A program made the position numbers and the translations under genes. From IMG/VR virus record IMGVR_UViG_3300027917_000012, positions 1-36,604 of that record: a DNA stretch of 36,604 nucleotides; one strand, written 5' to 3'. Position 1 is the stretch's first letter. Each line of letters starts with the position of its first letter. This DNA is from a virus. Of this stretch, positions 1,070 through 36,604 are shown in pieces. The notes under the pieces are model-generated. The model was not told the DNA's origin. It ran no database searches and was given only the letters and a program-made list of their open reading frames with translations.

Positions 1070-1470
1070 TGCCACGTCGAGGTAGAGGACAGCAGGCTAC
1101 TCGGGTTGCTACCGGGCAGCAGTACGGGCAGGCGCAGGCGCAGGAGCAGGCGCAGGACATGATTCCGTTGCCGGAGATGGAGCAGCCGTCGCCTGCGACG
1201 ATGGCTCCTGGCTCTATGGCGTTCGCTGGCCGTTCGCAAATGCCGAACGAGCCGGTAACTGCGACGGGCGCTATGCCTGCTGCTACGCCTCGTACAGACT
1301 CGACGCAAGAATTCAAAGTACGACAGTTTCTTGCGGTCACGTCAGAACTTGTTAGTCAAGAAACAGCGTCGCCTTGGCTGCGGAACGCTTACCGGGTCGC
1401 TAAGTCGCAGGTGCGTGACACCGCACAGTTTGCCGACAAGGGGCTGATGCCAGGCGTCGAGGATCAGTAA
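1069..1470 (+). CDS. Hypothetical virion-module protein (133 aa, Gln/Ala/Pro-rich N-terminus)
   Basis: Track ORF. Its ATG overlaps the portal stop (TAATG) and its stop overlaps the next ATG (TAATG), so it is translationally coupled. Confidence 0.6.
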   Translation: MPRRGRGQQATRVATGQQYGQAQAQEQAQDMIPLPEMEQPSPATMAPGSMAFAGRSQMPNEPVTATGAMPAATPRTDSTQEFKVRQFLAVTSELVSQETASPWLRNAYRVAKSQVRDTAQFADKGLMPGVEDQ

Positions 1471-4400
1471 TGGGCTTCTTTGACAGGTTGTGGAACGGTG
1501 CGGTTGACACCGTTACTGGCCCTGCCGAGTTTGTTGTTGACGTAGTGTCGGCTGGCCGGTCTGCGGTTAGCGGCGATTTTGGCGGTGCAGCCGAAACGGT
1601 GTTCAACTCGGTGCAGGAAGACCTGCTCGGCCAGACGATCCAAGGTTTGTTTGGTGCCGAGGGTATCGGTGGCACGCTGATCGGTGCGTTGCCGGAAGAG
1701 ATCCGTGACCCGGCCCGCACGATCATTGATCCTGTGTTTGGGGCGTGGGATTGGACGGTGCAGGAGATTGTTGACCGCCCGTTGGGCACGTTGTTCACGG
1801 TCGTCAACGCTACGCATCAAAACGGCGTTAGCTCGCTGTTTGATCTTGAGACGTATGCGAAGGCGTGGGAAATCAACGACGCCCGCACGTTCGGTCAGGC
1901 GTTCGCAGCGAACCTGTACCGGATCGACCCGTTTGATGAGGACGAGTACAACGCAATCCAAGACGACCCGCTGTTCAACCTGATCTCGGGCACTGCTGAC
2001 TTTGTGCAGGAGTTCATTGATCCGGTCACGATTGTTGGCGGCACGGCGATCAAGGGTGCCCGTGGCGGTGCCGTGTTGGGGTCGTCGTCTCGATCAAAAG
2101 GTGCTGGCAAGCTGCTCAAGACCGATGAGTTGCTGGAGGGTGCTCAAGTTGGTAGGCGTGGCGCTATTGGCGCGCCTCGTGAGATCACGCGTGTGTACGG
2201 CGGCAGAACCGGTCTGCGTCCCGAGGAGATCCTTGGGCGTCGTGACGGCATCTTCAAGTACCTGACCAAGACCCAGGATCAGATTGACAAGCGGCAGGCT
2301 GTTCTTCGTAACCACACGCAGCAGCGTGCTATTGCGTTCGTGTCTAGCGACGAGTACCTGAACATCGAGAACACGATGGCGAAGCTGGAAAGCCCTGGCG
2401 AGCGTGCTGAGGCGTTCCGGCAGTTGGTTGGTCCGGCTGGCGCCAAAATGTCTCGTGAAGCGGTCGAGTTGTATGCGAACGGTGCGACGCCGTTGGCTCG
2501 TGCTCGGACGATGCGTGCGTTGTCTGGCGACATGTCGGTGTTGGAAGAGATCGCTTCTGATGCCAGCAGGTTGATGGAAATCATGCAGGGCGACAACTGG
2601 GCTGACATTGACTTGGCGTTGCGTCTTCCTCACATTGGCGGCGACGTTGCAGGTGCAGCAGAGTTCCGCAAGCTTGCTGAGCAGACCGACTGGTCTGTGA
2701 TGTCGCAGTTCCAAGACGCGTTGTTTGATTCGCAGCAAAGGCGTCTGACGTGGCATAACGGACGATATTTGGGTGATTACGACTCGTCTTTTGACCAGTT
2801 AGTTGACTTGGCGCTTGAGAACGACGACTTGGTGCGTGCCGGGTTGGAGTCGATCTTGGCTGTTAGCGACGACATGTACTTGAACAAGATGTCGTTGGCG
2901 AGTTTGCCGCAGATCAAGCAGTTGCCGTGGGGCACCCGTTTGAACGCTTTGCTGAAGAACCATCGTGAAGTGTTGGAGCAGGCTGGCCCGAACCGGTGGG
3001 TGATTAGCGAGTTCCATAACCCGCACACTGTTGGCAGCAGGCTTGGCGGCGTGTTTGGCAAGGGCATTCGTGTCGTTACTGAACGCACTCCGCAGACGCA
3101 CATCTTCTTTGATGACCCTGATTCGGTGACGCAGTTTGAGCGTGTGTTGACGCAGGCAAACCGGTTGAACGTAAACGGCACAGAGATTCTGAGCGCTCAA
3201 GAAGCAGCAAACCTTGTGTCGAACTTCTCTCGGTTGAAGCGTGCTGGCCGCATGGAAGATGTTAAGACGCTGTACAACGACACGGTTGAGCGGATCAACA
3301 ACCGGCTTGATAAAGCGTTGGCTGACAACGGCATGGGCGAACGGCTCGGTAAAGGCGAGGGACAGATTGACCCGCAGGGCCGGACGCTGACGGGTCAGTA
3401 CCGTAAGCAGAACGGGCAGTGGGGCCGGGAGGCTGAGAAGGCTGTTGGTGTTAGCGATGATGCTGGTGTGGTGACGACGCAACGTCTGATGGAAGACGGA
3501 ACGTACATGGTGATCCAGCATCGCATGTCGAAGTCGCAGGTAAAGAATTCTGCGGTGCAGCCTCGTTATGACGTGGTGCAGCGCAAGATTGAGTTGGCGC
3601 AGAAGCGGCAGGGGTCGCTGGTTGAGCAGGTGCCGGTTCGTATTGGTGACGTTGCTCGTGGCGTGGTCGGCAAGAGCAGTCAGTTGTTGGACACTCCGCA
3701 GCAGGCGTGGCGGTCCTCGATGTTGTTGACGCCGAAGTGGCCGATGCGTGTCGGGTTGGATGAGCAGTTGCGTGCGGCTGCTGTGCTTGGTGGCATCACG
3801 CAGCTAGGCAACCTTATTGGTGCGTTCCCTGAGTTGCGGCGTGCGTTTGCGTTGCACAACTTGGACAACATTGATGCTGCTACTGACGCGCAAGCGATCA
3901 CTGAGTTGTTGGCTGCACGGGTCGGCATGGAAGCCGGTGTTGATGACGCCTACGACATCTTCAAGGCGGCGACTGAGGCGAACCCTGACGCGATCAAGGA
4001 TGCGGTGTCGGAGTTGCGGCGACAGAAAGTGTTGTCTGCTCGTGACTTGAAGAACCGTAAGAGCAACATTCTGCGTCTCAGCAAGAACGCTGCGATCAAA
4101 GGCATCGGCGTTGGTGCGTTGATGGGCAATCCGCTTGTTGGCGCAGGGTACGGGTTTGTTGCGTTCATGGGTAAGCGTCGCCGGGTCAACGATGCGTTGC
4201 AGCGCAAAGCCGCACTCAACTACGCAGAGACGTTGCGGTTCGAGGGCGAGCGCATGTTGCGTGAAGCTGTCGGGCCGGAAGAATTGGCTGAGGCTCGCCG
4301 GATGATGGACGACGCTACGCACATCAAGAAATTGATTGATTCTGATGATGCGGCGGTTGGTGCGGCTGCTCTTGAGGCAAAGAACGCGTTTGATTCTGCT

Positions 4401-7010
4401 GAGAAGTTGATGGCTGATGCTGGGGTTCACGGGTTGAACATTGGCGGCGTGTCGTTCCGTAATGCGTTTGGTGATGACACCCGGTATCAGGAACAGATTC
4501 GGGCTGAGGTGTCGTCTAGCCGTTCGCAGTCTGCGTTGTTCTCGGGTGCTATTCGTGACGCTGAGCGGCAGCTTCGCCGGTTTGAAGATGTCAGCTACAC
4601 GGTGTTTGACGCTGTAAAGCGCGACGCTGACGGTGTTGCGATCAACGCTGTTGACATCAGTCGCGAGTGGGCGAACATGATGAACCGTTACACCAGCGGT
4701 GATCCTCGGTTCCTTGAGATCGTGTGGTCGAACGAGTCGTTGGCGGAGCGTGCTGCGGCGCTTGAAGAACTGTTGCGGCGAGACTCTGGTTTGTTGTCGG
4801 ACCTTACGTCTCGGCGTGTTGATGACTTTGCCGACGACGAGTTGATGTGGACGGCAGAGAACATTATTGCCGAGTACGACGACGTGCTGCCTGCTAACTA
4901 CTTCCCTGAACTGCGCGACAAGGCACGCATGGGTCAGAAGCCGTCGTGGAAAGAAGTCACTCGCAAACTCAACAGCGACGTGTCGCTAGGCGACGGCCAA
5001 ACCCTGCATAGCAAGATCGAAGCGATGCGCGAGTCCAGCCCTGGATTTGCTAAAGCGGTCGCTCCTGAACCTGTCTCGCACCAAGGCGCTGCCCGTCGAG
5101 GCATCGGCGAAAGCCTGTTCGGGTACACCGAGAACCTGTTCAAGATGTTCGGCACGTTGCCGACTGACGAACTGGCCCGTAACCCGTTCTTCCGTACTCG
5201 ATACGAGCGGGAACTGCGTCGTCGTGTGGCTGTGCTGGCAGACCCTGACGGCAGGGTGCGGATCTCGCAGAAGAACATTGACGACATTGAGCAGCAGGCT
5301 CGGGCGGCGGCGTTGAAGGAAGTGCGTGAGGTCATGTACGACCTTGCGGAGAACACTCGTATCAGCGAGATGGTCGGCAACTCGATGCCGTTCTTCAATG
5401 CTTGGCAAGAGGTGATCGGGCGCTGGGCAGGGTTCGCTGTTGAGAACCCGACGTTCGTTGGTAACGCTTTGCGCCTGTACCGCAAGCCGTGGGACGCTGA
5501 GGCGTTGGGTATCAGCGAGGTCACGGTTGAGAACCCTGACGGGTCCGAGGGTGCGACGTATCTGATGTTCCGACCGTTCGGTCCGGCTTACGATTCGGAC
5601 GGTAACGAGACGACGATCTTTGATGCGATGTCGCCCACGATGCGAAACTTGCTGATTCCTGAGATGTTGCGGGATCAGGACGCAACGGTTCGTTTCTCGA
5701 AGGAGGGGCTGAACACGATTATGCAAAGTCCTGCTCCTGGGTTCGGTCCGTTGATTACGATCCCGGTGCGAGAAGCGATCCTGGCCCGTCCTGGGTTGGA
5801 AGAAAGCTTCGGGTTTATGTTCCCGTTCGGGCACCCGGAAGGCGGGTTCTTCGAGCGTGCGATCAAGGGCAACGCTCCGACGTGGGCAAAGTCCGTGGAC
5901 GACTACTTCCGTGACTCGCAGACCCGTGAGCGTCTCGTGCAGCGCATGTTCCAAGACATCGTGACGCAGCGTGCTGAGGCAGGCGACCCGCTGGACTGGA
6001 GCAACGACATGGAAGTCAACGCTGCGATTGAGTTGGCGAACGACCGGGCACGCGATTTCTCGCTGTTCCGTGTCGCTGCCGGTTTCTTCTCTCCGACTTC
6101 TACGACGTTGTTGTCGCCGTACGAGCCGTTGGTGCAGGAAGCCCGCAGGCTTCAACGGGAGCACGGGACGCTTGAGGGCAACTCGATGTTCCTTGACCGG
6201 TACGGCGAAGACTTCTTTGCGTTGACGGCCCGCATGACAAGGCTGAACGATGGTGTGGCTGCGTCGATTGAGTCTGAAGAGTTGTACATGAAGCATCAGG
6301 ATCTGGTGCAGGCGCATCCTGAGATCGGTGCGTGGGTGACTGCCAGTTTGGGTGGCGCTGATGAGGAGTTTGCGTTCTCGCAGGCTGTGTATCGGCGTCA
6401 GATGAACATGGAGTTGGCTCCTGGCAGCGAGCAGACTCGTCGTGAACGTAAGACGCCGCTTGAGGCGATTGGTGATACGCAGGCCGAGTTGGGTTGGAAG
6501 AAGTACACGGAGCTTCAGGATTACAAGCGCAGCAAGCAGGAAGAGTCGATTGCTTTGGGCATGTCGGGGTCGATGAACGCATCGCATATGCGTCCGTTGG
6601 CGACGTACTTGCAGCAGGAGATCGATGCGTTGCGTGAGGAGCATCCTGCGTGGGCTGCACAGTACGACGATTACGGGAGGTCTACTCGTCGGATGGCTGC
6701 GATCGTTGACGGGTTCGTGGCCGGGTTGCAGGACGAGCAGTTGTTGTTGCGTCCGTCTACGCAGCATGTAATTGACTATTTCGAGTTGCGTATGTATGTG
6801 CAGCGTCGTTTGCAAGAACGTGAACAGCAGGGCGGTTCGGACAATCTGGACGCTGGTTCTAACGAGGACTTGTTGCTGTATTGGGAACAGTCAAAGGAAC
6901 AGATGAGCTATTTGCCTGAGTTCTCTGCGATCTACGACCGTTACTTTGAGCGCGATAGTCTTGATCGTGCGACGTTCGTTCCTGACGATGCTTTTGAAGG
7001 GTTGTTCTGA
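1470..7010 (+). CDS. Giant 1846-aa protein, predicted virion-internal or ejection protein (function unknown)
   Basis: Single uninterrupted 5.5-kb ORF between portal and capsid, coupled TAATG/TGATG at both ends. Looks largely helical. I saw no Walker, polymerase or nuclease motifs by eye. Confidence 0.85.
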   Translation: MGFFDRLWNGAVDTVTGPAEFVVDVVSAGRSAVSGDFGGAAETVFNSVQEDLLGQTIQGLFGAEGIGGTLIGALPEEIRDPARTIIDPVFGAWDWTVQEIVDRPLGTLFTVVNATHQNGVSSLFDLETYAKAWEINDARTFGQAFAANLYRIDPFDEDEYNAIQDDPLFNLISGTADFVQEFIDPVTIVGGTAIKGARGGAVLGSSSRSKGAGKLLKTDELLEGAQVGRRGAIGAPREITRVYGGRTGLRPEEILGRRDGIFKYLTKTQDQIDKRQAVLRNHTQQRAIAFVSSDEYLNIENTMAKLESPGERAEAFRQLVGPAGAKMSREAVELYANGATPLARARTMRALSGDMSVLEEIASDASRLMEIMQGDNWADIDLALRLPHIGGDVAGAAEFRKLAEQTDWSVMSQFQDALFDSQQRRLTWHNGRYLGDYDSSFDQLVDLALENDDLVRAGLESILAVSDDMYLNKMSLASLPQIKQLPWGTRLNALLKNHREVLEQAGPNRWVISEFHNPHTVGSRLGGVFGKGIRVVTERTPQTHIFFDDPDSVTQFERVLTQANRLNVNGTEILSAQEAANLVSNFSRLKRAGRMEDVKTLYNDTVERINNRLDKALADNGMGERLGKGEGQIDPQGRTLTGQYRKQNGQWGREAEKAVGVSDDAGVVTTQRLMEDGTYMVIQHRMSKSQVKNSAVQPRYDVVQRKIELAQKRQGSLVEQVPVRIGDVARGVVGKSSQLLDTPQQAWRSSMLLTPKWPMRVGLDEQLRAAAVLGGITQLGNLIGAFPELRRAFALHNLDNIDAATDAQAITELLAARVGMEAGVDDAYDIFKAATEANPDAIKDAVSELRRQKVLSARDLKNRKSNILRLSKNAAIKGIGVGALMGNPLVGAGYGFVAFMGKRRRVNDALQRKAALNYAETLRFEGERMLREAVGPEELAEARRMMDDATHIKKLIDSDDAAVGAAALEAKNAFDSAEKLMADAGVHGLNIGGVSFRNAFGDDTRYQEQIRAEVSSSRSQSALFSGAIRDAERQLRRFEDVSYTVFDAVKRDADGVAINAVDISREWANMMNRYTSGDPRFLEIVWSNESLAERAAALEELLRRDSGLLSDLTSRRVDDFADDELMWTAENIIAEYDDVLPANYFPELRDKARMGQKPSWKEVTRKLNSDVSLGDGQTLHSKIEAMRESSPGFAKAVAPEPVSHQGAARRGIGESLFGYTENLFKMFGTLPTDELARNPFFRTRYERELRRRVAVLADPDGRVRISQKNIDDIEQQARAAALKEVREVMYDLAENTRISEMVGNSMPFFNAWQEVIGRWAGFAVENPTFVGNALRLYRKPWDAEALGISEVTVENPDGSEGATYLMFRPFGPAYDSDGNETTIFDAMSPTMRNLLIPEMLRDQDATVRFSKEGLNTIMQSPAPGFGPLITIPVREAILARPGLEESFGFMFPFGHPEGGFFERAIKGNAPTWAKSVDDYFRDSQTRERLVQRMFQDIVTQRAEAGDPLDWSNDMEVNAAIELANDRARDFSLFRVAAGFFSPTSTTLLSPYEPLVQEARRLQREHGTLEGNSMFLDRYGEDFFALTARMTRLNDGVAASIESEELYMKHQDLVQAHPEIGAWVTASLGGADEEFAFSQAVYRRQMNMELAPGSEQTRRERKTPLEAIGDTQAELGWKKYTELQDYKRSKQEESIALGMSGSMNASHMRPLATYLQQEIDALREEHPAWAAQYDDYGRSTRRMAAIVDGFVAGLQDEQLLLRPSTQHVIDYFELRMYVQRRLQEREQQGGSDNLDAGSNEDLLLYWEQSKEQMSYLPEFSAIYDRYFERDSLDRATFVPDDAFEGLF

Positions 7011-7768
7011 TGTCTAATGGCACTTCTTACGCTCAGCGTGATGCGGCAGTAAGCCAGATTGCTGCGGGCATGGCTGGCGGCGTTACGGCAACCGTGCTGG
7101 GCTACGGCGACCCTGTGCGGACGATCACGGCTACTGGCATGGAAGGCCGTGGCGGTTTCCAGTTGCAGTACGGCGAAGAGCCAGAACCGATCACGGTTTC
7201 TGATGTAGCTGACGTGCTGTCTGGGCTGACCCCTCAAGACCAGACGTTGTTGGCTATTGACATGTTGGCGGTCGGTGTCTATGACGACATCAACTACATG
7301 TTTGATGACAACAACCAGATTGACCAGCAGTTCTTCGTGAAAGCGGTCAACAACGCTGTGTCTTTGGCGGCTACGTCTGCGGAGTACGGGCTAGACACGG
7401 ACTTCCTTGATGTGTTGCTGCGTAACTCTGACCGTACGCCGGAGGAGTTGACGGCGTTGTTTGCGGAGAAGAAGGCTGAGGCGCAGTCGGGCGGCGGGCG
7501 TGTCATCAACTACATTGATCCGGTTGCGTTGGTTGACGCTGCGAAGAAGGCTACGTCGTCGGTGACGGGCCGTATGGCGACCCCTGAGGAGTCGCAGGCG
7601 TTTGTGAAGATGATTCATGGGTTGCAGGCGTCGGGTGCGACTGGGATCAATGTGGGTGCTCGTGCTGAGGCGTTTGCTCGTGAGCAGGCTCCTGAGGAGG
7701 CTAAGGCAATGGATTACGCTGGTGCTGCTGGTGTGTTGATGCAGGCGTTGGGGATGCGAGGGCGATAA
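7010..7768 (+). CDS. Hypothetical virion-module protein (252 aa)
   Basis: Track ORF, with TGATG coupling upstream and TAATG coupling downstream. Confidence 0.7.
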   Translation: MSNGTSYAQRDAAVSQIAAGMAGGVTATVLGYGDPVRTITATGMEGRGGFQLQYGEEPEPITVSDVADVLSGLTPQDQTLLAIDMLAVGVYDDINYMFDDNNQIDQQFFVKAVNNAVSLAATSAEYGLDTDFLDVLLRNSDRTPEELTALFAEKKAEAQSGGGRVINYIDPVALVDAAKKATSSVTGRMATPEESQAFVKMIHGLQASGATGINVGARAEAFAREQAPEEAKAMDYAGAAGVLMQALGMRGR

Positions 7769-10347
7769 TGAGCGATGTAAGCGCGAATCAAGACACTTCG
7801 ACTTGGCAGAGATATGAAAACTATTTGGCTTTTGCGCTAGGCCTTGTTAATCGTCAAATTGACTCAATCAATCGCATTGTTGGGCGTCGACAATCAGACA
7901 TCGACTTTGTCAATCAGTACAAGGACCATCTAGCGGGCAAGTACGGCGACACTGAAGATCCTAGAGCGCTAAATGCGACAACTCTTGTTCAAGATATTCA
8001 GGAAATTGTTGCGGCTAATAACAACGTAACAGGGCAAAGACTGGTTGTTGCGGATTTCCTTGCAGGGCCGCAGGAAGTCAACCTTTTCGTTGATGACAAT
8101 CTTTTCCAAGGCAACCTTGATTTTAGAGGTGTTGCAGAAAAGGCAGCAGAAATAGGTGCACTTCGCACGCCGGGTTCTTTGCGACAGGCTATTGAAACTG
8201 TTGAGGAGTTTTATGAAGTTTCAAACTTAGATACGAGCGATGTGCGTGTGGTGCACTACCAACACAAACCGCGCACAGATGACTTGGATGCTGGCATTGA
8301 AGCAGTGGATCCCGGCCAGGACGTGCTTGAGGCCCACAGCGGCATCTACGCACCAGAAGACTTACTTGCTCAGTTGAGCGAGATAAAAAATCTGCTTAGT
8401 TCTGACGACCCAGAATTGCAGGTTCAAGGCTTTGCCCAATTTGACGACCAGTACAACTACCTGAGCATTGAAGACTTGGTCAAGGGCCAGCCGCCCGTTA
8501 CGGCAGATGAGCGCAATCGTGCTGCTATTGAGTCTGGTGTAGGGTCTGAATCAACTGCCAAGGTATTCAGCCAGTGGGATGCTGTACTCAGCAAGTGGGA
8601 TGCTATTTCGGCTCTTGAGCGTTCCCCTGAAGATGAAATTGCTGATGACCGGGTTCGTAGTTTTGAAACTGAAACAGGAACTCGGTTTCGTGAAAGAGGA
8701 GTTGCTGCTGCGCTTGAGCCGGAAACTGCAAGGCGTCCGGTGTTCCAGTTGCAGCCGTCAGACCGTCTCGACACGATGGGGCCACGCCCCGAGCTAACTC
8801 CAGACATCAAATCCGCTAACGCGCGAAATCGGATTCTTCGTGAGCAGCGTGAGTATGACGCAGAAGTAGAGCGACGGACACGTCTAGAAGAAGACCTTGC
8901 TGCTCGGCAGATGCGTTCGGACGCGATCTTTAGGACACGCTCTGTGCTTGATGAAAGGCTGGAAGAAGCGCGTCGGGCTGAGGAACTTGAAGATCGGCGA
9001 CGAGAGTTCATTTACAACTGGTCTGGGCAAGCGGCAGCGGCTGAGGCCCGTGCAGATGCGATTGATCGCGTTAGCGGGCCTGATGCTTTAGAACAAGCGC
9101 GTTCGATTGCTCGTAACCTTGGGGCTACTCCGTCTGCGGGACCGGCTGCGGCTCCTGCTGCGGCGGCTCCTACTGTTGACGAGCCTCCTCGGCGGATGAC
9201 CTATGAAGAGGAGTTAGCGTACATTAATTCGCTGCCTGCTGCCGGTGTGTCTGGTGCAGCGGTAGCTGCGGAGACTGTTTCGCCTGAGGTGGAGCAGGCG
9301 CGGCGTCTTGGGCCTACGCCTAGTGGCGTTACAACCGGCTCTGGAGACGACGACGAACCTACGCTAGTACGGACAGGGCCGACAGCAGCACAGATCCGTG
9401 ACGCGAACCAGGCAGAAGTCGAACTACTGCTCGCACAGCAGTTCGGCGGGTTTTCGTTCTTTCTCCAGAAGCATCGCAGCGACCTGCAAGTCGGCCTCAC
9501 CGCAGACGGCCAGGTAGTCGCAGCCGACGACCCCAACGCGGCGTCCGTCAAGAACATCCTTGATGTCATTGTTGACCAGGGGATCACGGCACCGACCCGT
9601 GTGCTCGGGCTGCTGGAGAACACCGAGTGGTGGAAGAAGACCGACGCCCGCATGCGCGAGTACGACGTGCTCACCGCGGACATGTCGGAACCGCAGAAAC
9701 TGGAGTACCTAGAGCCGGTTCTGGACACGTTGCGGGACGAGGCACAGTTCCTTGGATTCCAGTTGGACCCGACCCGTGCCCGTGACCTGGCTGAGCAGAT
9801 CACCCGCATGGGCGAGGAAGGCGACGCCGAGTACATCCGTGGCCTGTTGACCGCCGAGGAATCGTTCAACGCTGCCGAGGTGACTGCGTCAAGCTTTGCT
9901 GCGGCGCGTGATGAGATTGTAACGATGTCGAAGCGGTACTTCACGCCGATCAACGAGGCTGACGCAGCCGAGTTTGCTCAGGACATTTATGTCGGTACAA
10001 AGACGGCTGAGGGTGTGGAGCAGTACTTCCGTGAGATGGCTGCGAACAAGTTCCCGCAGTTGCAGAACTCGTTGAACGCCGGGATCACGCCTGAGCAGTA
10101 TTTCGCTCCGTACAAGTACGAGATCGAACGGATGCTGGACCGTCCCAACGTCGACCTGTACGAAGAGTTCGGTGATGTGATCCAGTTCATTCCTGATACG
10201 GGGACTGGTGAGGCTCGTCCGATGACGTTGGGCGAGGTGCGTAAGTATGTGCGTGGGTTGGATGAGTGGCAGCAGTCGTCGCAGGGTACGGATTCTGCGA
10301 GGGCGTTGGCGTTCTCGATCGGGCGCGTGTTTGGTGAGGTGGCCTGA
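7768..10347 (+). CDS. Large hypothetical virion-module protein (859 aa) with an AT-rich N-terminal module, a charged coiled-coil centre and an Ala/Pro linker
   Basis: Track ORF, coupled at both ends. There is a marked composition shift inside the ORF (see findings). Confidence 0.8.
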   Translation: MSDVSANQDTSTWQRYENYLAFALGLVNRQIDSINRIVGRRQSDIDFVNQYKDHLAGKYGDTEDPRALNATTLVQDIQEIVAANNNVTGQRLVVADFLAGPQEVNLFVDDNLFQGNLDFRGVAEKAAEIGALRTPGSLRQAIETVEEFYEVSNLDTSDVRVVHYQHKPRTDDLDAGIEAVDPGQDVLEAHSGIYAPEDLLAQLSEIKNLLSSDDPELQVQGFAQFDDQYNYLSIEDLVKGQPPVTADERNRAAIESGVGSESTAKVFSQWDAVLSKWDAISALERSPEDEIADDRVRSFETETGTRFRERGVAAALEPETARRPVFQLQPSDRLDTMGPRPELTPDIKSANARNRILREQREYDAEVERRTRLEEDLAARQMRSDAIFRTRSVLDERLEEARRAEELEDRRREFIYNWSGQAAAAEARADAIDRVSGPDALEQARSIARNLGATPSAGPAAAPAAAAPTVDEPPRRMTYEEELAYINSLPAAGVSGAAVAAETVSPEVEQARRLGPTPSGVTTGSGDDDEPTLVRTGPTAAQIRDANQAEVELLLAQQFGGFSFFLQKHRSDLQVGLTADGQVVAADDPNAASVKNILDVIVDQGITAPTRVLGLLENTEWWKKTDARMREYDVLTADMSEPQKLEYLEPVLDTLRDEAQFLGFQLDPTRARDLAEQITRMGEEGDAEYIRGLLTAEESFNAAEVTASSFAAARDEIVTMSKRYFTPINEADAAEFAQDIYVGTKTAEGVEQYFREMAANKFPQLQNSLNAGITPEQYFAPYKYEIERMLDRPNVDLYEEFGDVIQFIPDTGTGEARPMTLGEVRKYVRGLDEWQQSSQGTDSARALAFSIGRVFGEVA

Positions 10348-23836: not shown

Positions 23837-24494
23837 AAGTGCACACCCAGTGTTGCCATCCGCCTTCGGGGGCGGCGAGTGCCAGCCATGCGCTGACCCA
23901 GATGTTTGCTGCGGGGTCGAACACGTCGGCCCCTGGCCTGCCTGCACGGTCGGCCCTGTCAGGCCAGTATCGAGTCAAATGTTGCATGAGTCCTGATGCG
24001 CTACTGTTGGGGTTCTTGGCGTCCGGTAGCCCTGCCGATTCGCATTGCATGATTCGGAGAAACCGATGAACGTCAGCATCGCCGCCGCCGAATGCAAAGA
24101 CTGCTTCTGTAACGGCTGGTCGCCAACGCTCCACGTTGTCCCAGAACACGGTGGGTGCCTGCGTTGTGGGTGCAGGCGGGATCGTTGTTGCCGGGACGGT
24201 TACTGTTGTGGACGTGGAGGGGATCGAACCCTCGTGACCCGCTGATGCAGTAGCCTCAGCAGCGAACCCGACGTTCACGCCCGTCTCCGACAATGTAGTC
24301 GATGAGGGCGGCACGGTCGTGGATGTCGGGGCCGTCGGTTTGGCGAGCGTAGGCTCGTAGTTCTGCGAGGTTGAGGTCGTGGACGGTAACGGGTCGTCCG
24401 CAGCGCATGCTGTCAGAAGCGTCAGGAGCGCCGCTGTTGCGTTCAAGACCCATCGCCGGTACCTGAGTCCATCTGTCGTCTCAGAAGCTCCCAT
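23835..24494 (-). CDS. Lipoprotein with an SLT-type lytic transglycosylase domain (219 aa)
   Basis: MGASETTDGLRYRRWVLNATAALLTLLTAC is a signal with an LTAC lipobox. An S/T/P linker follows, then IMQCESAGLPDAKNPNSSASGLMQH (ES...GLMQ signature). Confidence 0.65.
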   Translation of the reverse strand: MGASETTDGLRYRRWVLNATAALLTLLTACAADDPLPSTTSTSQNYEPTLAKPTAPTSTTVPPSSTTLSETGVNVGFAAEATASAGHEGSIPSTSTTVTVPATTIPPAPTTQAPTVFWDNVERWRPAVTEAVFAFGGGDADVHRFLRIMQCESAGLPDAKNPNSSASGLMQHLTRYWPDRADRAGRPGADVFDPAANIWVSAWLALAAPEGGWQHWVCT

Positions 24495-25174
24495 TGGCGC
24501 TCCTCGTCGTTCTGACGGGATTCCACGATCTCATCATCCCAGCACTCGTTGTTGAGCCACGTCGAAGCATGGAGAATGAACCCTGCTTCCACACGGCTGT
24601 CAAAGTCCCGGTACGTTCGCATAGCGTCCAGCAGGCGGTCATGACCGACCTTCTTCGCTGCTTTGGCATAAGCCCTCCTGGCTTCAGGCTTCCGCACCTT
24701 GCGTGGGTACTCGGCCCACCAGATGTCGAAGTCCTGTTGTTCGTTCGGTTGTTCATCCGCTTGCGGATGGACGATAGGAAATAAAGGTTCAGAACCACAT
24801 GGGTCTGGTTCTACTGGGTCTGGTTCAGGGGGAGACAAATTTGTCTCCGGGGGGGAGACACCGATGTCCTGGGGGGGTAGGACACCAGTGTCTCCCCTAA
24901 CACGCATCACCAAATACGTGTTGGAAGTCTGCGAACCGTTGTCTCGACTGCGTTCCGAGACACGAATCCACCCTTCGTCACGCAACTCCGCGATGCATCG
25001 CTGTACCGTCCGAGCAGACAGCCCGGTACGGTCACCGATGGTCGCTTTGCTAGGCCACGAAGTCTGGTGCTGGTTCGCAGCCTCGGCCAGCACAGCGTAG
25101 ACACACACTGCGCTGGCCGAGACGGTGCCAAGCATCCCGAGTGGGACGATGGCGAATGGGTGACTAACTGCCAC
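24443..25174 (-). CDS. Winged-HTH DNA-binding protein, replication-initiator or replisome-organizer-like (243 aa)
   Basis: GTG start after AAAGGGAGGAA. N-terminal wHTH (SKATIGDRTGLSARTVQRCIAELRDEGWI). C-terminal FDIWWAEYPRKVRKPEARRAY...STWLNNECWDDE pattern is common in phage replication proteins. Confidence 0.55.
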   Translation of the reverse strand: MAVSHPFAIVPLGMLGTVSASAVCVYAVLAEAANQHQTSWPSKATIGDRTGLSARTVQRCIAELRDEGWIRVSERSRDNGSQTSNTYLVMRVRGDTGVLPPQDIGVSPPETNLSPPEPDPVEPDPCGSEPLFPIVHPQADEQPNEQQDFDIWWAEYPRKVRKPEARRAYAKAAKKVGHDRLLDAMRTYRDFDSRVEAGFILHASTWLNNECWDDEIVESRQNDEERQWELLRRQMDSGTGDGS

Positions 25175-25322
25175 TTGGCAGTTCCTCCCTTTGGTAGATG
25201 CCGGTCAACAGGAACCGGCGTATCAACAACGAACGAGACACCCCGTCGTCCGCTGCGAGCTTGGTCAGGCGGTCGAGCACGTCTTTGGGTAGACGTAGCG
25301 TGACCGCAGTGTCATTGCTCAT
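25161..25322 (-). CDS. Ribbon-helix-helix (CopG/Arc-like) DNA-binding protein, 53 aa
   Basis: Not in the track. MSNDTAVTLRLPKDVLDRLTKLAADDGVSRSLLIRRFLLTGIYQREELPSGS. ATGA overlap with the upstream gene and a 14-nt overlap with the downstream GTG. Confidence 0.65.
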
Positions 25323-25537
25323 GCCTCAGCCCGCCGTTCCTCCTCGATCCAAGCTGCCACGTCTTGCAGGACATACTTGACGGAGCCACAAAGGCGGAAG
25401 CTGCGTGGACCCTGTCCTTTGGAGCGCCAGTTGGCGAGCGTGTGCACGTTAATGCCGATCAGTTCAGACAGTTCTTTAGGCGACACCATCTTAGGAATGC
25501 CATCAGGCCGCTTCTCGGCAGTGTTCGGTGTTTGCAT
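25319..25537 (-). CDS. Excisionase/MerR-like HTH DNA-binding protein (72 aa)
   Basis: VSPKELSELIGINVHTLANWRSKGQGPRSFRLCGSVKYVLQDVAAWIE matches the Xis/AlpA-type HTH pattern. Confidence 0.65.
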   Translation of the reverse strand: MQTPNTAEKRPDGIPKMVSPKELSELIGINVHTLANWRSKGQGPRSFRLCGSVKYVLQDVAAWIEEERRAEA

Positions 25538-27982: not shown

Positions 27983-28285
27983 TTAGGTGGGTTTGTCAAG
28001 ATTTCTTTGCCGACGACGCTCACGCTGCCGCTCATTCCGAGCCTCAAACCGGGCACGATGCCTGTCCTCAGGCGTCAAACCCGCATAAATCCCGTAGTCG
28101 TCCTCGTACCTCGGATGATCGCCCAGAATGTACTCACGACACTCCTCCAACACCGGACAAGCAGCACAAACAGCCTTCGCATCCTCGATGTCACGCAACG
28201 CCTTACCAGACGCAGCACCCTTCACCGGAAAGAAAAAGTTCGTGTCGTAGCCTCGGCACGCAGCGTCGACCATCCACTCCGTCAC
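27983..28285 (-). CDS. whiB: WhiB-family 4Fe-4S transcription factor (100 aa; alternative start 28273)
   Basis: C-x(n)-CAACPVLEEC Cys pattern, GIYAGLTPEDR turn and an Arg-rich C-terminus. Confidence 0.8.
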   Translation of the reverse strand: MTEWMVDAACRGYDTNFFFPVKGAASGKALRDIEDAKAVCAACPVLEECREYILGDHPRYEDDYGIYAGLTPEDRHRARFEARNERQRERRRQRNLDKPT

Positions 28286-28698
28286 TCCTCCATACCCCCA
28301 GCAATCAACGCAGCCGACAAATCCTCACACAACCCAGGCGGCAACGAAATCGTCGTCCCCGTCCGAGGATTGATGACTTGCCACTGCAACGCATCAGCAA
28401 ACGTCGTCTGCGGCTGATACCGCAACACAAACGTCCGCTCCCGAGCACGCTCCACAATCTCTGCCGCTGCCTCCCACATGTCGTCACCGGCACGATTCAC
28501 CAGATTCATGACCGTTGTATGGTCCCGGCCCAGCATCGACCCGATCTCCGGGTAGCTGTACCCCAGAATCCGTAGCGACACCGCCGCAACACGCCGAGCC
28601 TTCACCACAGGCGCATGCCTGTTCCCGCTCAACATGTCATCGAGATGCACCCTGCTGTACTCCGCAGACGCCTCCAACACCTCAGCGTCGTACATCAC
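28282..28698 (-). CDS. DnaA domain IV-like HTH protein (138 aa)
   Basis: APVVKARRVAAVSLRILGYSYPEIGSMLGRDHTTVMNLVNRA matches the DnaA C-terminal DNA-binding domain pattern (R..A.yL....S...IG...g.rDHtTV). Confidence 0.65.
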   Translation of the reverse strand: MMYDAEVLEASAEYSRVHLDDMLSGNRHAPVVKARRVAAVSLRILGYSYPEIGSMLGRDHTTVMNLVNRAGDDMWEAAAEIVERARERTFVLRYQPQTTFADALQWQVINPRTGTTISLPPGLCEDLSAALIAGGMEE

Positions 28699-28816
28699 GA
28701 GCCTCCCGCAGCACCTGCTTCACCCAATCCGACGGACGCTGATCCGAACGCAAATCACTCGACTGCTTCGGATGACGCAAAATTTCGTCATGCTGCATCG
28801 CAGTTTGTTCCTTCAT
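28682..28816 (-). CDS. Candidate 44-aa ORF (MKEQTAMQHDEILRHPKQSSDLRSDQRPSDWVKQVLREARDVRR)
   Basis: Not in the track. ATGA overlap with the upstream gene. It overlaps the downstream start. Confidence 0.35.
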   Translation of the reverse strand: MKEQTAMQHDEILRHPKQSSDLRSDQRPSDWVKQVLREARDVRR

Positions 28817-29007
28817 GGTTTCTTCCTCGTTCCAGGCGGCAAATGACAACCGCAGTCACACAACGGACGGGCCACCCGCACGTCGTCATTCCAAAGGCTG
28901 CCCCTGATGCATTCATAGCCAGCAGGCACCGGGCACTGGTGTGGTTTCTTCACAGTTCCCCCTTCGTTCTCCACACCATACGCACACCCTGTGACACCTG
29001 CAACCAT
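28813..29007 (-). CDS. Small Cys-rich protein (64 aa from MVAGVTGC...)
   Basis: Internal ATG of track ORF 28813..29250. The upstream part of that ORF covers the operator region and looks non-coding. Contains CPVPAGYEC...CDCGCH. Confidence 0.5.
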   Translation of the reverse strand: MVAGVTGCAYGVENEGGTVKKPHQCPVPAGYECIRGSLWNDDVRVARPLCDCGCHLPPGTRKKP

Positions 29008-29040
29008 TTCGATCAGGTAGAGCGATGAGGTGTAGCGATA

Positions 29041-29065
29041 GTGACGCCTTACGGCGTCACTTTTT
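29041..29065. promoter_or_regulatory. 8-bp inverted repeat GTGACGCC-ttac-GGCGTCAC plus T5. Operator-like, or a plus-strand terminator-like hairpin
   Basis: Read directly from the sequence. On the minus strand its arm overlaps a CACTAT -10-like hexamer (29038-29043) located about 30 nt upstream of ATG 29007. Confidence 0.45.
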
Positions 29066-29074
29066 CGCCGTCGG

Positions 29075-29120
29075 CGAACGCCCGTTCGGGCGAACATACG
29101 TTCGTGCGAACATATGTTCG
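29075..29120. promoter_or_regulatory. Three abutting LexA/SOS-box-like palindromes (CGAAC-N4-GTTCG) at a 16-bp phase
   Basis: CGAACGCCCGTTCG 29075-29088, CGAACATACGTTCG 29091-29104, and CGAACATATGTTCG 29107-29120 (a perfect 14-bp palindrome identical to the Bacillus Cheo-box consensus). Confidence 0.7.
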
Positions 29121-29154
29121 TTCCACAATGCGGAACGGTTCCACAATGCGGAAC
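29120..29154. promoter_or_regulatory. Two tandem GTTCC-N7-GGAAC dyads (18-bp direct repeat GTTCCACAATGCGGAACG)
   Basis: GTTCCACAATGCGGAAC at 29120-29136 and 29138-29154, contiguous with the SOS-box array. Confidence 0.6.
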
Positions 29155-29376
29155 AACCGCGGAGAGTAGTGGCCGGCTCTCACTCTGCGCGGTCGCGGCG
29201 TTGTGCGGGCGTCTCGTGCGTTCCGGCGTTGCGGGCGTATTCCGGCGCACGCGAAACGCCCGGAACGCTTAGGGGTGCGCTCCGGGCGTCTCCGGGGGTT
29301 CTAGGTTGTCGGGCGCTACGTCATCCGGTGAGAACCCATAGCACTAGAATCAGTAGCAGGAGCCACCCCAGGGGCG

Positions 29377-30192
29377 TCACCTGGGCGCATCCTTCCCCGT
29401 CGAAAAGCGCACGTTACCGGTTCCACCGGGCAGACAATGGGCGCACGTAGCGCACGCGCCCGCCGCGGTCTCGGGATCCACAAGGGGAACGCGCCCGGTG
29501 AGTTCCGGGCAACGCAACCCGCGACGCTCGCCCATTGCTTGCGCGAGTTCCGCAGTTTCGTCCCAACTGTCACCGGAGAACGCCAACCGGAGCCACGGGT
29601 GGCGGGCGATCGCTCGGCGCGCTGATTGCACGTTGTCGCGGTCGACTGACAGGAAGACGCTTAGCGTCTCCGGTGGGCGCCCGGTGGACGGTAGGCGGAA
29701 CCTATGCGCCCACTTGTGCGCTCGGGTGTAGACCCATCCGCGCACGTTCGGGCGCATCTCGTGCGCCCGGGCTATGGCTGTCGCGTGCGTCTCGTGCGCT
29801 AGTTCCCCGTCCCACTGCCACCGGAACAACGGCGCCCGGACGCCCGCTAGGCGTTGCGCCGCGGCCGATTCGTCCAGCAGTGCGGCGAACATCTCCGCTA
29901 GCTCATCTGGGCGGTTTTCGTAGGCCATGACCGCGGCGTAGTTGTCCGCCATCATCCGGCCTACGGCAGGAAAACGGCGATCGATTGCCGCGGCGTAGCA
30001 ACCGTGGCAAAAGTCGGTTTTGTGCGGTTCGCACGATTCACGCGCGAGGCCGAACGAATTAGGCACGGCTGCCCAGTCTCCTGACGGCTTTAGCCGGGCG
30101 TGCGTGCACGTTTTCCGGTTGGTCGAGAGACGCAACATAGGCGGCGCGCTTGTCACCGGGATGGTGCGGCGCTTGGTCCTAGTAGTCATCAT
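29377..30192 (-). CDS. Cys-rich metal-binding protein (271 aa from MMTTRTKRR). Resembles the 'gene product 88' phage family as I recall it
   Basis: Internal ATG with a 14-nt overlap on the upstream stop. CTHAR...C..H....FCHGCYAA...FRWQWDGEL...VRGWVYTRAHKW...CATCAHC. Confidence 0.55.
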   Translation of the reverse strand: MMTTRTKRRTIPVTSAPPMLRLSTNRKTCTHARLKPSGDWAAVPNSFGLARESCEPHKTDFCHGCYAAAIDRRFPAVGRMMADNYAAVMAYENRPDELAEMFAALLDESAAAQRLAGVRAPLFRWQWDGELAHETHATAIARAHEMRPNVRGWVYTRAHKWAHRFRLPSTGRPPETLSVFLSVDRDNVQSARRAIARHPWLRLAFSGDSWDETAELAQAMGERRGLRCPELTGRVPLVDPETAAGACATCAHCLPGGTGNVRFSTGKDAPR

Positions 30193-30436
30193 CCCACCTT
30201 TCACCTGCTGCGGTTGGGTCAAACCAACCGGGCGCAACGTCGGAATTGGCCCAGCGGGCGAGACTGTCGCGGGACTCGTACCGGTCCCACATTTGTTCTG
30301 CGTGGGCGTCGCAACGGGGGAACGCCCGCCCGAACCGTCCGGGGACCTCGTGGAACGCCACCGGACCGCGGCACGGTCCGGCGTTGGGGTGCCCATGCTC
30401 TAGGCAATCTTCCGGCAGTAGTTCGGGCGCGCTCAT
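30179..30436 (-). CDS. Small Cys/His-rich protein (85 aa)
   Basis: ATGA overlap upstream. CLEHGHPNAGPCRGP...FPRCDAH. Confidence 0.55.
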   Translation of the reverse strand: MSAPELLPEDCLEHGHPNAGPCRGPVAFHEVPGRFGRAFPRCDAHAEQMWDRYESRDSLARWANSDVAPGWFDPTAAGERWDDDY

Positions 30437-31382: not shown

Positions 31383-31613
31383 CTAGGCGGTTGGGGTGTC
31401 CGATAGTGGGCGCACCGACTCCCAACGGTCCGCGTTGATAGTAAACGGTGCGACCAGTGCGCCACCTGGCTGGAGCGCCCGGCGCCACGGCGCCCGGTAG
31501 TACGCGAGCAAGTGCCGCGCCCGGTGCTTACGCCACCGGCGACGTTCCTCTCGCGTGGGGAATACGGCCGCGAGCAGTACGCCTGCAATAGCTGCCCAGA
31601 TTGGCGCAGTCAT
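31383..31613 (-). CDS. Small membrane protein (76 aa from MTAPIW)
   Basis: ATGA overlap upstream. N-terminal TM helix APIWAAIAGVLLAAVF, then an Arg-rich stretch. Confidence 0.5.
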   Translation of the reverse strand: MTAPIWAAIAGVLLAAVFPTREERRRWRKHRARHLLAYYRAPWRRALQPGGALVAPFTINADRWESVRPLSDTPTA

Positions 31614-32199: not shown

Positions 32200-32307
32200 C
32201 CGATAGTGGCACCGGCTCCTCGAGTCGCGCCCGATAGTGAACCCCACCGGCCCAAGGGCTCGCCCGCTCGACCATCGCACCCAACCGGCCCACGCCTGCC
32301 CGATAGC
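32200..32307 (-). promoter_or_regulatory. Three copies of the (C)ACTATCGG / CTATCGG motif (minus-strand reading), each near a CCGGTG element
   Basis: Plus-strand CCGATAGTG at 32200-32208 and 32231-32239, and CCGATAG at 32299-32305. CACCGG at 32210, 32245 and 32317. Further copies at 29036-29043, 31400-31408 and 32535-32542, and one on the opposite strand at 32606-32612. Confidence 0.45.
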
Positions 32308-32415: not shown

Positions 32416-32493
32416 CGAACGTTTGTTCGGGCGTACAGGTGTTTGTGCGAACGTATGTTCGGGGCGAGGGTCCGAAAAGCGAACGTATGTTCG
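32416..32493. promoter_or_regulatory. Three LexA/SOS-box-like palindromes at an exact 32-bp phase
   Basis: CGAACGTTTGTTCG 32416-32429, CGAACGTATGTTCG 32448-32461, CGAACGTATGTTCG 32480-32493. Confidence 0.7.
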
Positions 32494-32544
32494 CAGTTAG
32501 GGGCCATAACGAACCGGTTAGGGGGTATCACGGTGCGATAGTAG

Positions 32545-32558
32545 ACGAACTTGTTCGT
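32545..32558. promoter_or_regulatory. Related dyad ACGAAC-TT-GTTCGT abutting a minus-strand TACTAT hexamer
   Basis: CGAAC-N2-GTTCG at 32546-32557. The TACTAT hexamer (minus strand) is at 32538-32543. Confidence 0.4.
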
Positions 32559-32610
32559 CCAGAACATGGGGGGATGTGCCGAGGCACATGCTATATAGGA
32601 ATATGCTATC

Positions 32611-32666
32611 GGTGGGTTGGGTGTTTTGGTTTGTTGGTGTGTGTGGGGTGGGGTGTTTTGGTTGGG
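32611..32666 (+). other. 56-nt tract composed only of G and T (C/A on the minus strand), with an internal 13-nt direct repeat
   Basis: ggtgggttgggtgttttggtttgttggtgtgtgtggggtggggtgttttggttggg. GGGTGTTTTGGTT occurs at 32618-32630 and 32651-32663. Preceded by an AT-rich island and followed by the hairpin GGGACC...GGTCCC (32664-32683). Confidence 0.8.
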
Positions 32667-32894
32667 ACCGTGCCCTGGGTCCCTCCGTCAGTTTAGGTTG
32701 ATCGCCTGCCAACGTTCTGCGGTGTGTGTTGGCTGGTCGTGCCCGCCCCGTCCCAGGGGCCGTCGTTTCTCGGGCACGACTCGGAGGCCCTTCTGACGGG
32801 CGACGCTCACGCGTGCAAGGCGTGGCCCCAACGGTTGACCGGGTTGGGGTGCCGGTTGGTGTAGTGTAGCAGGTGACTAGTTGGAGGTTGTGTC

Positions 32895-35826: not shown

Positions 35827-36604
35827 AGTCCGCTGAAGACATCGTTGACCTGTATTACAGCCGTTCGCAGAATCATGCGGGCGTCAAGGCGCGTATGCGT
35901 CACATCCGTGACCATTACAACGGCGACGTTGTCGTGCCGCTACCGGAGATTGACACTACTGAGTCGGCTGCGGTCGCGAACCTTCTTGCTCAGGGTCTGG
36001 ATCAGACGGCGATGCGTGTTGCGTCGGTCCTGCCGGACATTGTGTGCCCGCCTGCCGACGACACCTCCAAGCAGGCGCGCAAGCACGCACAGATCCGCCG
36101 CAAGGCCATGTTTGGTTGGTGGCAGAACTCAACGCTTGATCTTCAGCTAGCAAAACGTGCTCGCCATTTGATCGGGTATTCGCAGACTGTGACGCAGTTG
36201 CGGTTCGATCCGAAGAAAGGCGTGCCGACATGGCATACCCGTGACCCGCTGACCGCCTACCCGTCGAACCTGCGGGGCGTGGACGACATGAACCCAGCCG
36301 ACTGCGTGTTCGGCTACGAACGCACCTACGGCTGGATGCAAACCTTCTACCCCGAAGCCGCGCTGCGGTTTGCTGGTGGCGTGAAGGACTCACCGTATGA
36401 GAAGGACGAACCGATCGAGATGATCGAGTACGTCGACCATATGGAAACGGTGCTGGTCGGGTTGCGCAACCCGCACACCCAGGGTTACGCCAGCGACGAC
36501 ACCAGCCCCGTCATCGTGGAACTGGAGCGTGTCCCGAACCTGATCGGACGCTGCCCCGTTGTCGTCTCCAACCGGATCTCGCTGGACGAGTCCCGAGGCC
36601 AGTT
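35823..36604 (+). CDS. Portal protein, N-terminal part (open to the window end; continues at 2-1069)
   Basis: ATG 35823 overlaps the TerL stop (ATATGA). I translated all 260 codons to the window end and found no stop. It is absent from the supplied track because there is no in-window stop. Confidence 0.75.
   Translation, partial: MKSAEDIVDLYYSRSQNHAGVKARMRHIRDHYNGDVVVPLPEIDTTESAAVANLLAQGLDQTAMRVASVLPDIVCPPADDTSKQARKHAQIRRKAMFGWWQNSTLDLQLAKRARHLIGYSQTVTQLRFDPKKGVPTWHTRDPLTAYPSNLRGVDDMNPADCVFGYERTYGWMQTFYPEAALRFAGGVKDSPYEKDEPIEMIEYVDHMETVLVGLRNPHTQGYASDDTSPVIVELERVPNLIGRCPVVVSNRISLDESRGQ
36506..36604. repeat. Terminal overlap, copy 2 (identical to 1-99)
   Basis: Exact 99-nt identity with the window start. 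Confidence 0.95.

Follow-up and report, generated by a model that had tools for sequence, protein, structure and literature searches.

Most known phage promoters under LexA control belong to temperate phages of Proteobacteria and Firmicutes, and tools that predict SOS-dependent prophages from LexA boxes reportedly exist. In Gram-positive bacteria, and in Actinobacteria in particular, the LexA operator has the extended form CGAACRNRYGTTCG, and the C. glutamicum lexA / divS-nrdR region is a comparable SOS and division-inhibitor operator of the Actinomycetota. In this study we analysed the virus record IMGVR_UViG_3300027917_000012 over its 36,604 nucleotides (hereafter the window), in which an 80-bp element at positions 29075–29154, a candidate LexA-gated operator, combines three SOS (LexA) boxes with two 17-bp dyads ahead of genes for replication and recombination. 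Two described systems come closest to it. In the lexA–Rv2719c region of M. tuberculosis, four SOS boxes have been reported by chromatin immunoprecipitation sequencing (ChIP-seq) and earlier work, three of them acting on Rv2719c, and the core consensus is TCGAAC(N4)GTTCGA (PMC3381160). In the Bacillus thuringiensis tectivirus GIL01, the P1 promoter carries the adjacent LexA sites dinBox1 and dinBox1b, and the corepressor gp7 cooperates with LexA (PMC4551915).

The window resembles the Actinomycetota lexA operators, such as that of M. tuberculosis, in its half-site (CGAACR), in the abutting 16-bp tandem and in the clustering of 3–4 boxes (PMC3381160). It differs from them in that its boxes are phage-borne, lie ahead of replication and recombination genes, have three perfect cores with G/C flanks and are fused to 17-bp dyads. 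The likeness to GIL01 consists in the lack of a recognisable CI-type repressor or integrase, in adjacent LexA sites (here putative) by replication and regulation genes and in a second factor, which is here predicted. However, in GIL01 a single good box is accompanied by a half-site and gp7 does not bind DNA, whereas the window has three perfect boxes and separate dyads for the predicted second factor; host phylum and virion type differ as well. No homologue of gp6 or gp7 was identified, although no search was aimed at gp7.

An earlier note on this DNA had located three boxes at 29075, 29091 and 29107 in a 16-bp phase. All three were found at these positions with perfect CGAAC-N4-GTTCG cores: box 1 (CGAACGCCCGTTCG, 29075–29088), whose inner positions are purine/pyrimidine as in host lexA-operator boxes, box 2 (CGAACATACGTTCG, 29091–29104), which lies 16 bp from box 1 in a tandem geometry identical to that of lexA-adjacent operators in Actinomycetota, and box 3 (CGAACATATGTTCG, 29107–29120), a perfect 14-bp palindrome whose final base is shared with the first 17-mer. 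The 16-bp phase results from the 2-bp spacers that part the boxes. Perfect CGAAC-N4-GTTCG sites occur 6 times in the window against 0.12 expected, and 6 was reached in none of 100 shuffles, which excludes chance; all 6 are intergenic and fall in two regions, 29075–29120 and 32416–32493.

Two boxes at a distance of 16 bp (20 specified bases) were used as a search pattern, for which the chance expectation is well below one match per collection. The pattern was found at 40 loci in viral contigs, with GC contents of 0.32–0.69 and heterogeneous gene neighbourhoods, and at only 43 loci in prokaryotic genomes totalling 596 Gb, about 30 of these loci being named as Actinomycetota. A lexA homologue lies close by in 26 of the 43 genome loci, its nearest end being ∼50–450 bp from the pair in 25 and 701 bp in L199, and both Peptidase_S24 and LexA_DNA_bind were confirmed by Pfam in three of the lexA-linked loci. 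At several genome loci lexA and a LysM-domain gene are divergent, and in L166 nrdR follows the LysM gene; such lexA/LysM/nrdR loci are the lexA / Rv2719c (divS-nrdR) arrangement. On the sequence evidence, the abutting 16-bp tandem is a native lexA-region operator across Frankiales, Propionibacteriales, Micrococcales, Nitriliruptorales, Nanopelagicales and others. Its recurrence beside lexA across Actinomycetota provides a template for predicting SOS-dependent phages.

The base that follows CGAAC was left outside the search pattern and thus serves as an independent check. It is a purine in 93% of the host operator half-sites, in 12/12 half-sites of the window, in 60/60 of its relatives and in 97% of those of the other viral contigs. 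The lexA-linked tandem matches and this inner purine make host LexA (SOS) operators the best reading of the boxes, as the earlier note had suggested. The same note had objected that 16-bp packing is too tight for independent LexA dimers. On B-DNA geometry, 16 bp amounts to ∼1.5 helical turns, so that adjacent dimers would sit on opposite faces and can occupy the DNA together; with this geometry, and with the same tandem adjoining lexA in natural operators (the 26 genome loci above), the steric objection is answered. A hidden Markov model built from 26 actinobacterial LexA proteins retrieved nothing from the window and seven relatives (best E = 2). As no LexA-like open reading frame (ORF) was found in any of them, host LexA is the simplest binder. 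Because the tandem is present in 40 viral contigs of varied GC and neighbourhoods, a host factor fits better than one phage protein; when 125 ORFs beside the tandem boxes of 25 viral contigs were surveyed with Pfam, they had no regulator family in common.

The pattern search also yielded sites of other kinds. L180 (Treponema primitia) carries nine head-to-tail copies of GCGAACTTTAGTTCGA-type 16-mers at 6046–6198 and L194, from a Treponema metagenome-assembled genome (MAG), carries three; this tandem satellite fits the pattern but is unrelated to lexA. In unrelated viral contigs with GC contents of 0.46–0.56, clusters of DnaA boxes (up to 4 × TTATCCACA) directly adjoin clusters of CGAAC-N4-GTTCG, the sites being L023 ∼10124–10290, L026 ∼4957–5120, L007/L033, L012 ∼100–160 and L031 ∼3150–3300.

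The boxes of the window run directly into two identical copies of GTTCCACAATGCGGAAC: dyad A (29120–29136), whose first base is the last base of box 3, and dyad B (29138–29154), at an 18-bp phase to dyad A. These are the two GTTCC-N7-GGAAC dyads that had been described as abutting the boxes at 29120 and 29138, and they constitute a second dyad type. They are the only 2 perfect copies of this motif in the window, where every other match to the extended dyad has at least 3 mismatches. The question, raised in the earlier note, of whether the dyads occur elsewhere at background frequency is answered in the negative for both types, by the excess of perfect boxes given above and by the lack of near copies of the 17-mer.

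Relatives of the window were found by pattern and by protein. Their 17-mer variants (GTTCCGCATTGTGGAAC, GTTCCGTATCGTGGAAC, GTTCCGCATGCCGGAAC, GTTCCACTATGTGGAAC and others) define a 7-3-7 dyad, GTTCCRC-N3-GYGGAAC, with conserved arms and a variable centre. L005, L032, L038/L085, L067 and L024 all keep the same layout, in which two 17-mers parted by 1 bp are followed by the box or boxes, a hairpin and a conserved leader. The 18/16/16 spacing of this cassette is fixed in the window, L005, L032, L038 and L067 and recurs five times in L172, and the 1-bp overlap between box and 17-mer is kept in L005, L032, L038, L067 and the 5 L172 cassettes. L172 (CALKUW010000128.1) holds its five 17-mer/SOS-box cassettes within 8 kb (1249–7567); it has 65% GC and phage-like small genes, and only three early proteins are common to it and the window. 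This contig sits in an 'uncultured Flavobacteriales' MAG and is almost certainly a mis-binned actinophage contig. The cassette is rare, since a viral scan that required exact arms for a 17-mer plus box found no match and a metagenome scan with the conserved 22-mer of the leader gave only 2 loci. What appears to be new here is that a phage has apparently copied the host lexA operator, with its 16-bp tandem, as three boxes whose cores are all perfect, that this tandem is welded to a second pair of dyads, the resulting rigid cassette recurring as many as five times in a related contig, and that such a putative composite operator is present in a complete genome with no recognisable lysogeny genes.

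We think it probable, if well short of certain, that the 80 bp at 29075–29154 form a composite LexA-gated operator ahead of the replication/recombination ('middle') operon. Layered control of this operon, as put forward in the earlier note, seems reasonable to us because a second dyad type abuts the boxes. The composite operator would have the middle operon on one side and, on the other, the end of the early genes, which is terminator-like. Host LexA dimers would occupy the three boxes, arranged as in the lexA-adjacent 16-bp tandem of Actinomycetota, and a second dimeric protein would bind the two 17-bp dyads, which are fused to the boxes by one shared base. LexA and this second protein would together make up a nucleoprotein block of 80 bp at the head of the middle operon, with a sister block at the early region; SOS boxes are found at both the early and the middle regions of the window. 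As long as LexA is intact, transcription into the operon would be blocked, either by promoter occlusion or by an orientation-independent roadblock, and RecA-stimulated cleavage of LexA during the SOS response would lift the block. Expression of the phage exonuclease, annealase, single-stranded DNA-binding protein (SSB) and initiator would thereby be coupled to the DNA-damage state of the host. The rationale may be SOS-coupled dormancy or timing, as in GIL01. If LexA gates the early and middle genes in this way, environmental actinophages that would be annotated as lytic also have SOS-coupled dormancy or timing, and the partner that binds the 17-mers is a new co-regulator to look for. A broader proposal, which we regard as unlikely, is that the cassette (two dyads plus 1–4 LexA boxes) is a portable, orientation-independent SOS-gated checkpoint of transcription, with LexA and the 17-mer partner as the sole repressor of these integrase-less actinophages; it would maintain a GIL01-like non-integrated carrier state in Actinomycetota from which the phage is freed by DNA damage.

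Several observations weigh against a LexA-gated operator. The flanks of the boxes depart from those of the host: the T/A flanks of the TCGAAC-N4-GTTCGA consensus are missing from the window boxes, and T at position −1, which is present in 56% of the half-sites in host operators, occurs in 0/12 half-sites of the window and in 3% in its relatives, G being preferred there. However, G/C flanks like those of the phage are also found in the lexA operators of Nitriliruptorales, so this mismatch has no force to exclude LexA. A sigma-70-type promoter scan of both strands returned none, and the geometry of the predicted repression has to be deduced accordingly. The phage looks lytic, and no integrase, partition protein or CI-type repressor was recognised among the scanned ORFs of the complete genome; it is difficult to see why a purely lytic phage would have its early and middle genes repressed by LexA. 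A simple promoter-overlap model is made less likely by L172, in which the order is boxes, 17-mers and then gene, the reverse of that in the window. The internal polarity of the 17-mers relative to the boxes also flips (L024, L172). Since order and polarity can both be reversed, the cassette is best seen as a symmetric unit for protein binding that would work either way round, and a roadblock or an occlusion element would match this better than a promoter. Finally, the close relatives L068–L081 have near-identical middle genes, and in their fetched loci boxes, 17-mers and hairpin are all absent, while L085 is without the early box cluster; control by the boxes is therefore dispensable. The regulatory module is mosaic within the phage family, the DnaA-C-like proteins of L068–L077 being 67–69% identical. 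In place of the cassette, L068–L077 have 3–4 direct CACCTG(T/C)ATGCC repeats right before the start codon, ∼60–130 bp upstream of the Cys-rich gene.

The deviating flanks, with G enriched and T avoided at −1, could also point to a dimeric regulator encoded by the phage itself, for example a small early protein with LexA-like specificity, in which case host LexA would be irrelevant or a bystander. The boxes come and go among close relatives in the manner of an immunity module, a DNA binder could hide among the early proteins, which have no recognisable domains, and GIL01 reportedly encodes a LexA homologue, gp6, that is active at phage promoters. Such a regulator nevertheless seems improbable to us: no LexA-like ORF was found, no early protein is common to the window, L024, L085 and L172, and the identical tandem with its inner purine recurs at chromosomal lexA genes and in 40 varied viral contigs. 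Host LexA would, moreover, bind a perfect host-consensus core in any event. In another reading, LexA would bind the boxes for titration instead of repression: carried on a replicating genome, the six sites would form a sink for LexA and derepress the host SOS regulon (RecA, the cell-division inhibitor and polymerases) to the advantage of the phage. Titration of this kind would suit six perfect, high-information sites in a genome without lysogeny genes, sites that copy the operator of lexA and of the division-inhibitor gene, and a cassette that stands in either orientation to genes and occurs five times in L172. We nonetheless rate it as quite improbable, as the sites are strictly intergenic, lie at operon boundaries and are always accompanied by 17-mers and hairpin, which indicates cis-regulation, and as relatives do without them.

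It is far less probable still that the block is a replication origin in which the 17-mers, the boxes or both serve as iterons for a phage initiator or for DnaA, even though the 17-mer contains TTCCACA, a DnaA-domain-IV-like gene (Bac_DnaA_C, E = 5e-14) lies 260 bp downstream and 18-bp-phase GTTCC-N7-GGAAC arrays, like lambda-O-type iterons, are found inside ORFs of L205–L208. In L023/L026, L007/L033, L012 and L031, as described above, SOS-box clusters abut true DnaA boxes. Against an origin, the window has two copies only and no AT-rich unwinding element, and its O-like initiator gene holds its own GGAGACA-N4-TGTCTCC dyads, three in number, at 24831–24897. Five origins within the 8 kb of L172 would be implausible, the CACA of the 17-mer is not conserved (ACGA, ATAA and GGCA in relatives), and the DnaA-C-like protein is only 27–28% identical in L024/L038, which have near-identical 17-mers, compared to 67–69% in relatives without them.

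The composite LexA-gated operator, which we prefer to these alternatives, calls for a binder of the 17-mers. The earlier note had named three phage proteins as possible partners of LexA, with ribbon-helix-helix (RHH), helix-turn-helix (HTH) and winged-HTH (wHTH) folds. This was not borne out, as the wHTH protein has iterons of its own and the distribution of the cassette does not match that of the HTH and RHH proteins. The wHTH (HTH_36) protein, encoded at 24443–25174, shares its N-terminal architecture with the ORFs of L205–L208. In the linker of its gene (24831–24897, minus strand), three different dyads of the GGAGACA-N4-TGTCTCC type were found ∼23–25 bp apart (GGGGAGACA-ctgg-TGTCCTA, AGGACA-tcgg-TGTCTCC and GGAGACA-aatt-TGTCTCC), and the peptide that they encode is repetitive (GVLPPQD/GVSPPE/LSPPE). 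The protein was rejected as a 17-mer binder because it is a lambda-O-like initiator with these different iterons, and the phage origin most likely lies inside the wHTH gene, in a lambda-O-type layout, rather than at 29.1 kb. The Xis-like HTH protein (HTH_17, 25319–25537) was undetected in L005, L024 and L038, which keep the cassette, and the RHH protein (25161–25322) reaches 94–96% identity in relatives that lack a cassette in the loci fetched. As co-occurring partners, RHH, WhiB, the DnaA-C-like protein and wHTH were all set aside since they are also present in cassette-less relatives, the first three often being 67–96% identical in L068–L081; for the DnaA-C-like protein, the identities in L024 and L038 on the one hand and in relatives without 17-mers on the other, given above, led to the same rejection. 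No early protein common to all box-bearing genomes (window, L024, L085 and L172) was found. The 17-mer binder is possibly a host factor or an undetected phage protein.

Two further readings of the 17-mer itself were discarded. As a DnaA box, its best alignment to a TTATCCACA-like 9-mer with the TCCACA core reaches 6/9, and the 'CACA' of this putative box is what is replaced in relatives, whereas the dyad arms GTTCC/GGAAC are kept. Lambda-O-type iterons are 17–19-bp dyads at a ∼18–23-bp phase inside the initiator gene. The 18-bp-phase dyads of the window resemble the L205–L208 arrays in this respect; in contrast, they lie between genes and are in every case fused to SOS boxes, and the window has its own O-like gene with different iterons. 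With only 2 copies situated 4 kb from the initiator gene, where at least 3 in or next to that gene are needed, they do not qualify as such iterons. As for L205–L208 (IMG/VR), 3–6 GTTCC-N7-GGAAC dyads, mostly at 18–23-bp spacing, lie within the linker of 270–290-aa ORFs resembling genes for replisome organisers or O-like initiators, and these iterons encode repeated peptides, e.g., TVPDSG.

Directly 3′ of the boxes on the gene strand is an element with an 8-bp stem, GTGACGCC-GTAA-GGCGTCAC (29041–29060, minus strand; the loop is also written ttac). Its stem is 100% paired in six relatives, and one pair is found in three Watson–Crick types (GC/CG/AU). Because pairing is kept through compensatory changes, the repeat seems to behave as a hairpin or dyad element, not as a promoter hexamer. 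Thus the 8-bp inverted repeat that had been described here stands, but the CACTAT that it was said to overlap is not recognisable as a −10 element. An intrinsic terminator on the + strand was rejected, the T-run being only on that (non-gene) strand and missing in L038 and L024; the scan did not call this hairpin as a terminator. The hairpin is followed by a conserved leader of 31 almost invariant nt, TATCGCTACACCTCATCGCTCTACCTGATCG (29010–29040, minus strand), of which 25 nt (GTCACTATCGCTACACCTCATCGCT) are identical in the window, L005 and L024. It looks homologous to the CACCTGYATGCC repeats found at the same place in the box-less L068–L077. The leader is a possible promoter or activator site of the middle operon. 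A hand search for TANNNT and extracytoplasmic function (ECF) patterns found nothing conserved, and an ECF-sigma promoter was dismissed after both strands were read, there being no CGTT/GTT 16–19 nt after any of the four GGAAC. Rfam gave only a sub-threshold match, to P31 (27 bits, compared to a 40-bit cut-off). For the leader region 28945–29065 (minus strand), a stable fold is predicted, with a second long stem beyond the first hairpin in which UACACCU pairs with AUGGUGUG (minimum free energy −40.8 kcal/mol, z = −2.5).

The window begins and ends with the same 99 bp (1–99 = 36506–36604), and this exact terminal overlap shows that the assembly is circular and complete at ∼36.5 kb; across the circular junction, an ORF of at least 623 aa stays open. 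The genome is actinophage-like, with 59% GC and a context that includes WhiB and the GP88 family. There was no nucleotide match to the window in INPHARED (cultured phages), and its protein matches to cultured phages are only 23–32% identical. The cassette lies outside genes, with a terminator-like hairpin on one side and the next operon on the other. Upstream of it, in the early block, is the GP88-family gene (29377–30396), followed by the terminator-like hairpin, an imperfect 16-bp inverted repeat (29253–29292, minus strand; 88% complementary) that separates the early block from the cassette. The first gene 3′ of the cassette (28813–28953, minus strand) encodes a 46-aa Cys-rich protein. The downstream gene had been said to begin at ATG 29007. 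Its start is most likely GTG 28953, which has a strong ribosome-binding site (GAAGGGGGA) and from which the homologues of relatives align; the untranslated gap is therefore ∼423 bp rather than the 369 bp given before. After the Cys-rich gene, the minus-strand order is DnaA-domain-IV-like HTH, WhiB, PD-(D/E)XK nuclease-like, Rad52-like, SSB, HTH_17, RHH and the 243-aa wHTH. The first of these (28282–28698) is the DnaA-C-like gene that matches Bac_DnaA_C, and the Pfam match of the PD-(D/E)XK nuclease-like protein is slightly under the curated cut-off.

The other three perfect SOS boxes of the window form a sister operator (32416–32493) between the divergent early (minus strand) and packaging (plus strand) genes. 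They start at 32416, 32448 and 32480, and their 32-bp phase (∼3 turns of B-DNA) would put all sites on one face. This operator is kept in L086, L083 and L024. The palindrome GACGAAC-TT-GTTCGTC (32544–32559) has the same half-site with a spacer of N2 (N3 in L086, N4 in L084). The region 32416–32700 also holds two GTTAGGGG repeats, as well as the palindrome ATGTGCC-GA-GGCACAT (32574–32589) and a G/T-rich tract (∼32610–32670), the latter two being kept even in the box-less L085 and L084. This early region may be a packaging or end-related site. The octamer CACTATCG is present four times in the window (29036–29043, 31401–31408, 32201–32208 and 32232–32239, all on the minus strand), compared to 0.88 expected. 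All four copies are on the gene strand of the early/middle region; there are variants at ∼32296–32305 and ∼32533–32542, and the octamer may represent a phage-specific promoter or regulator motif.

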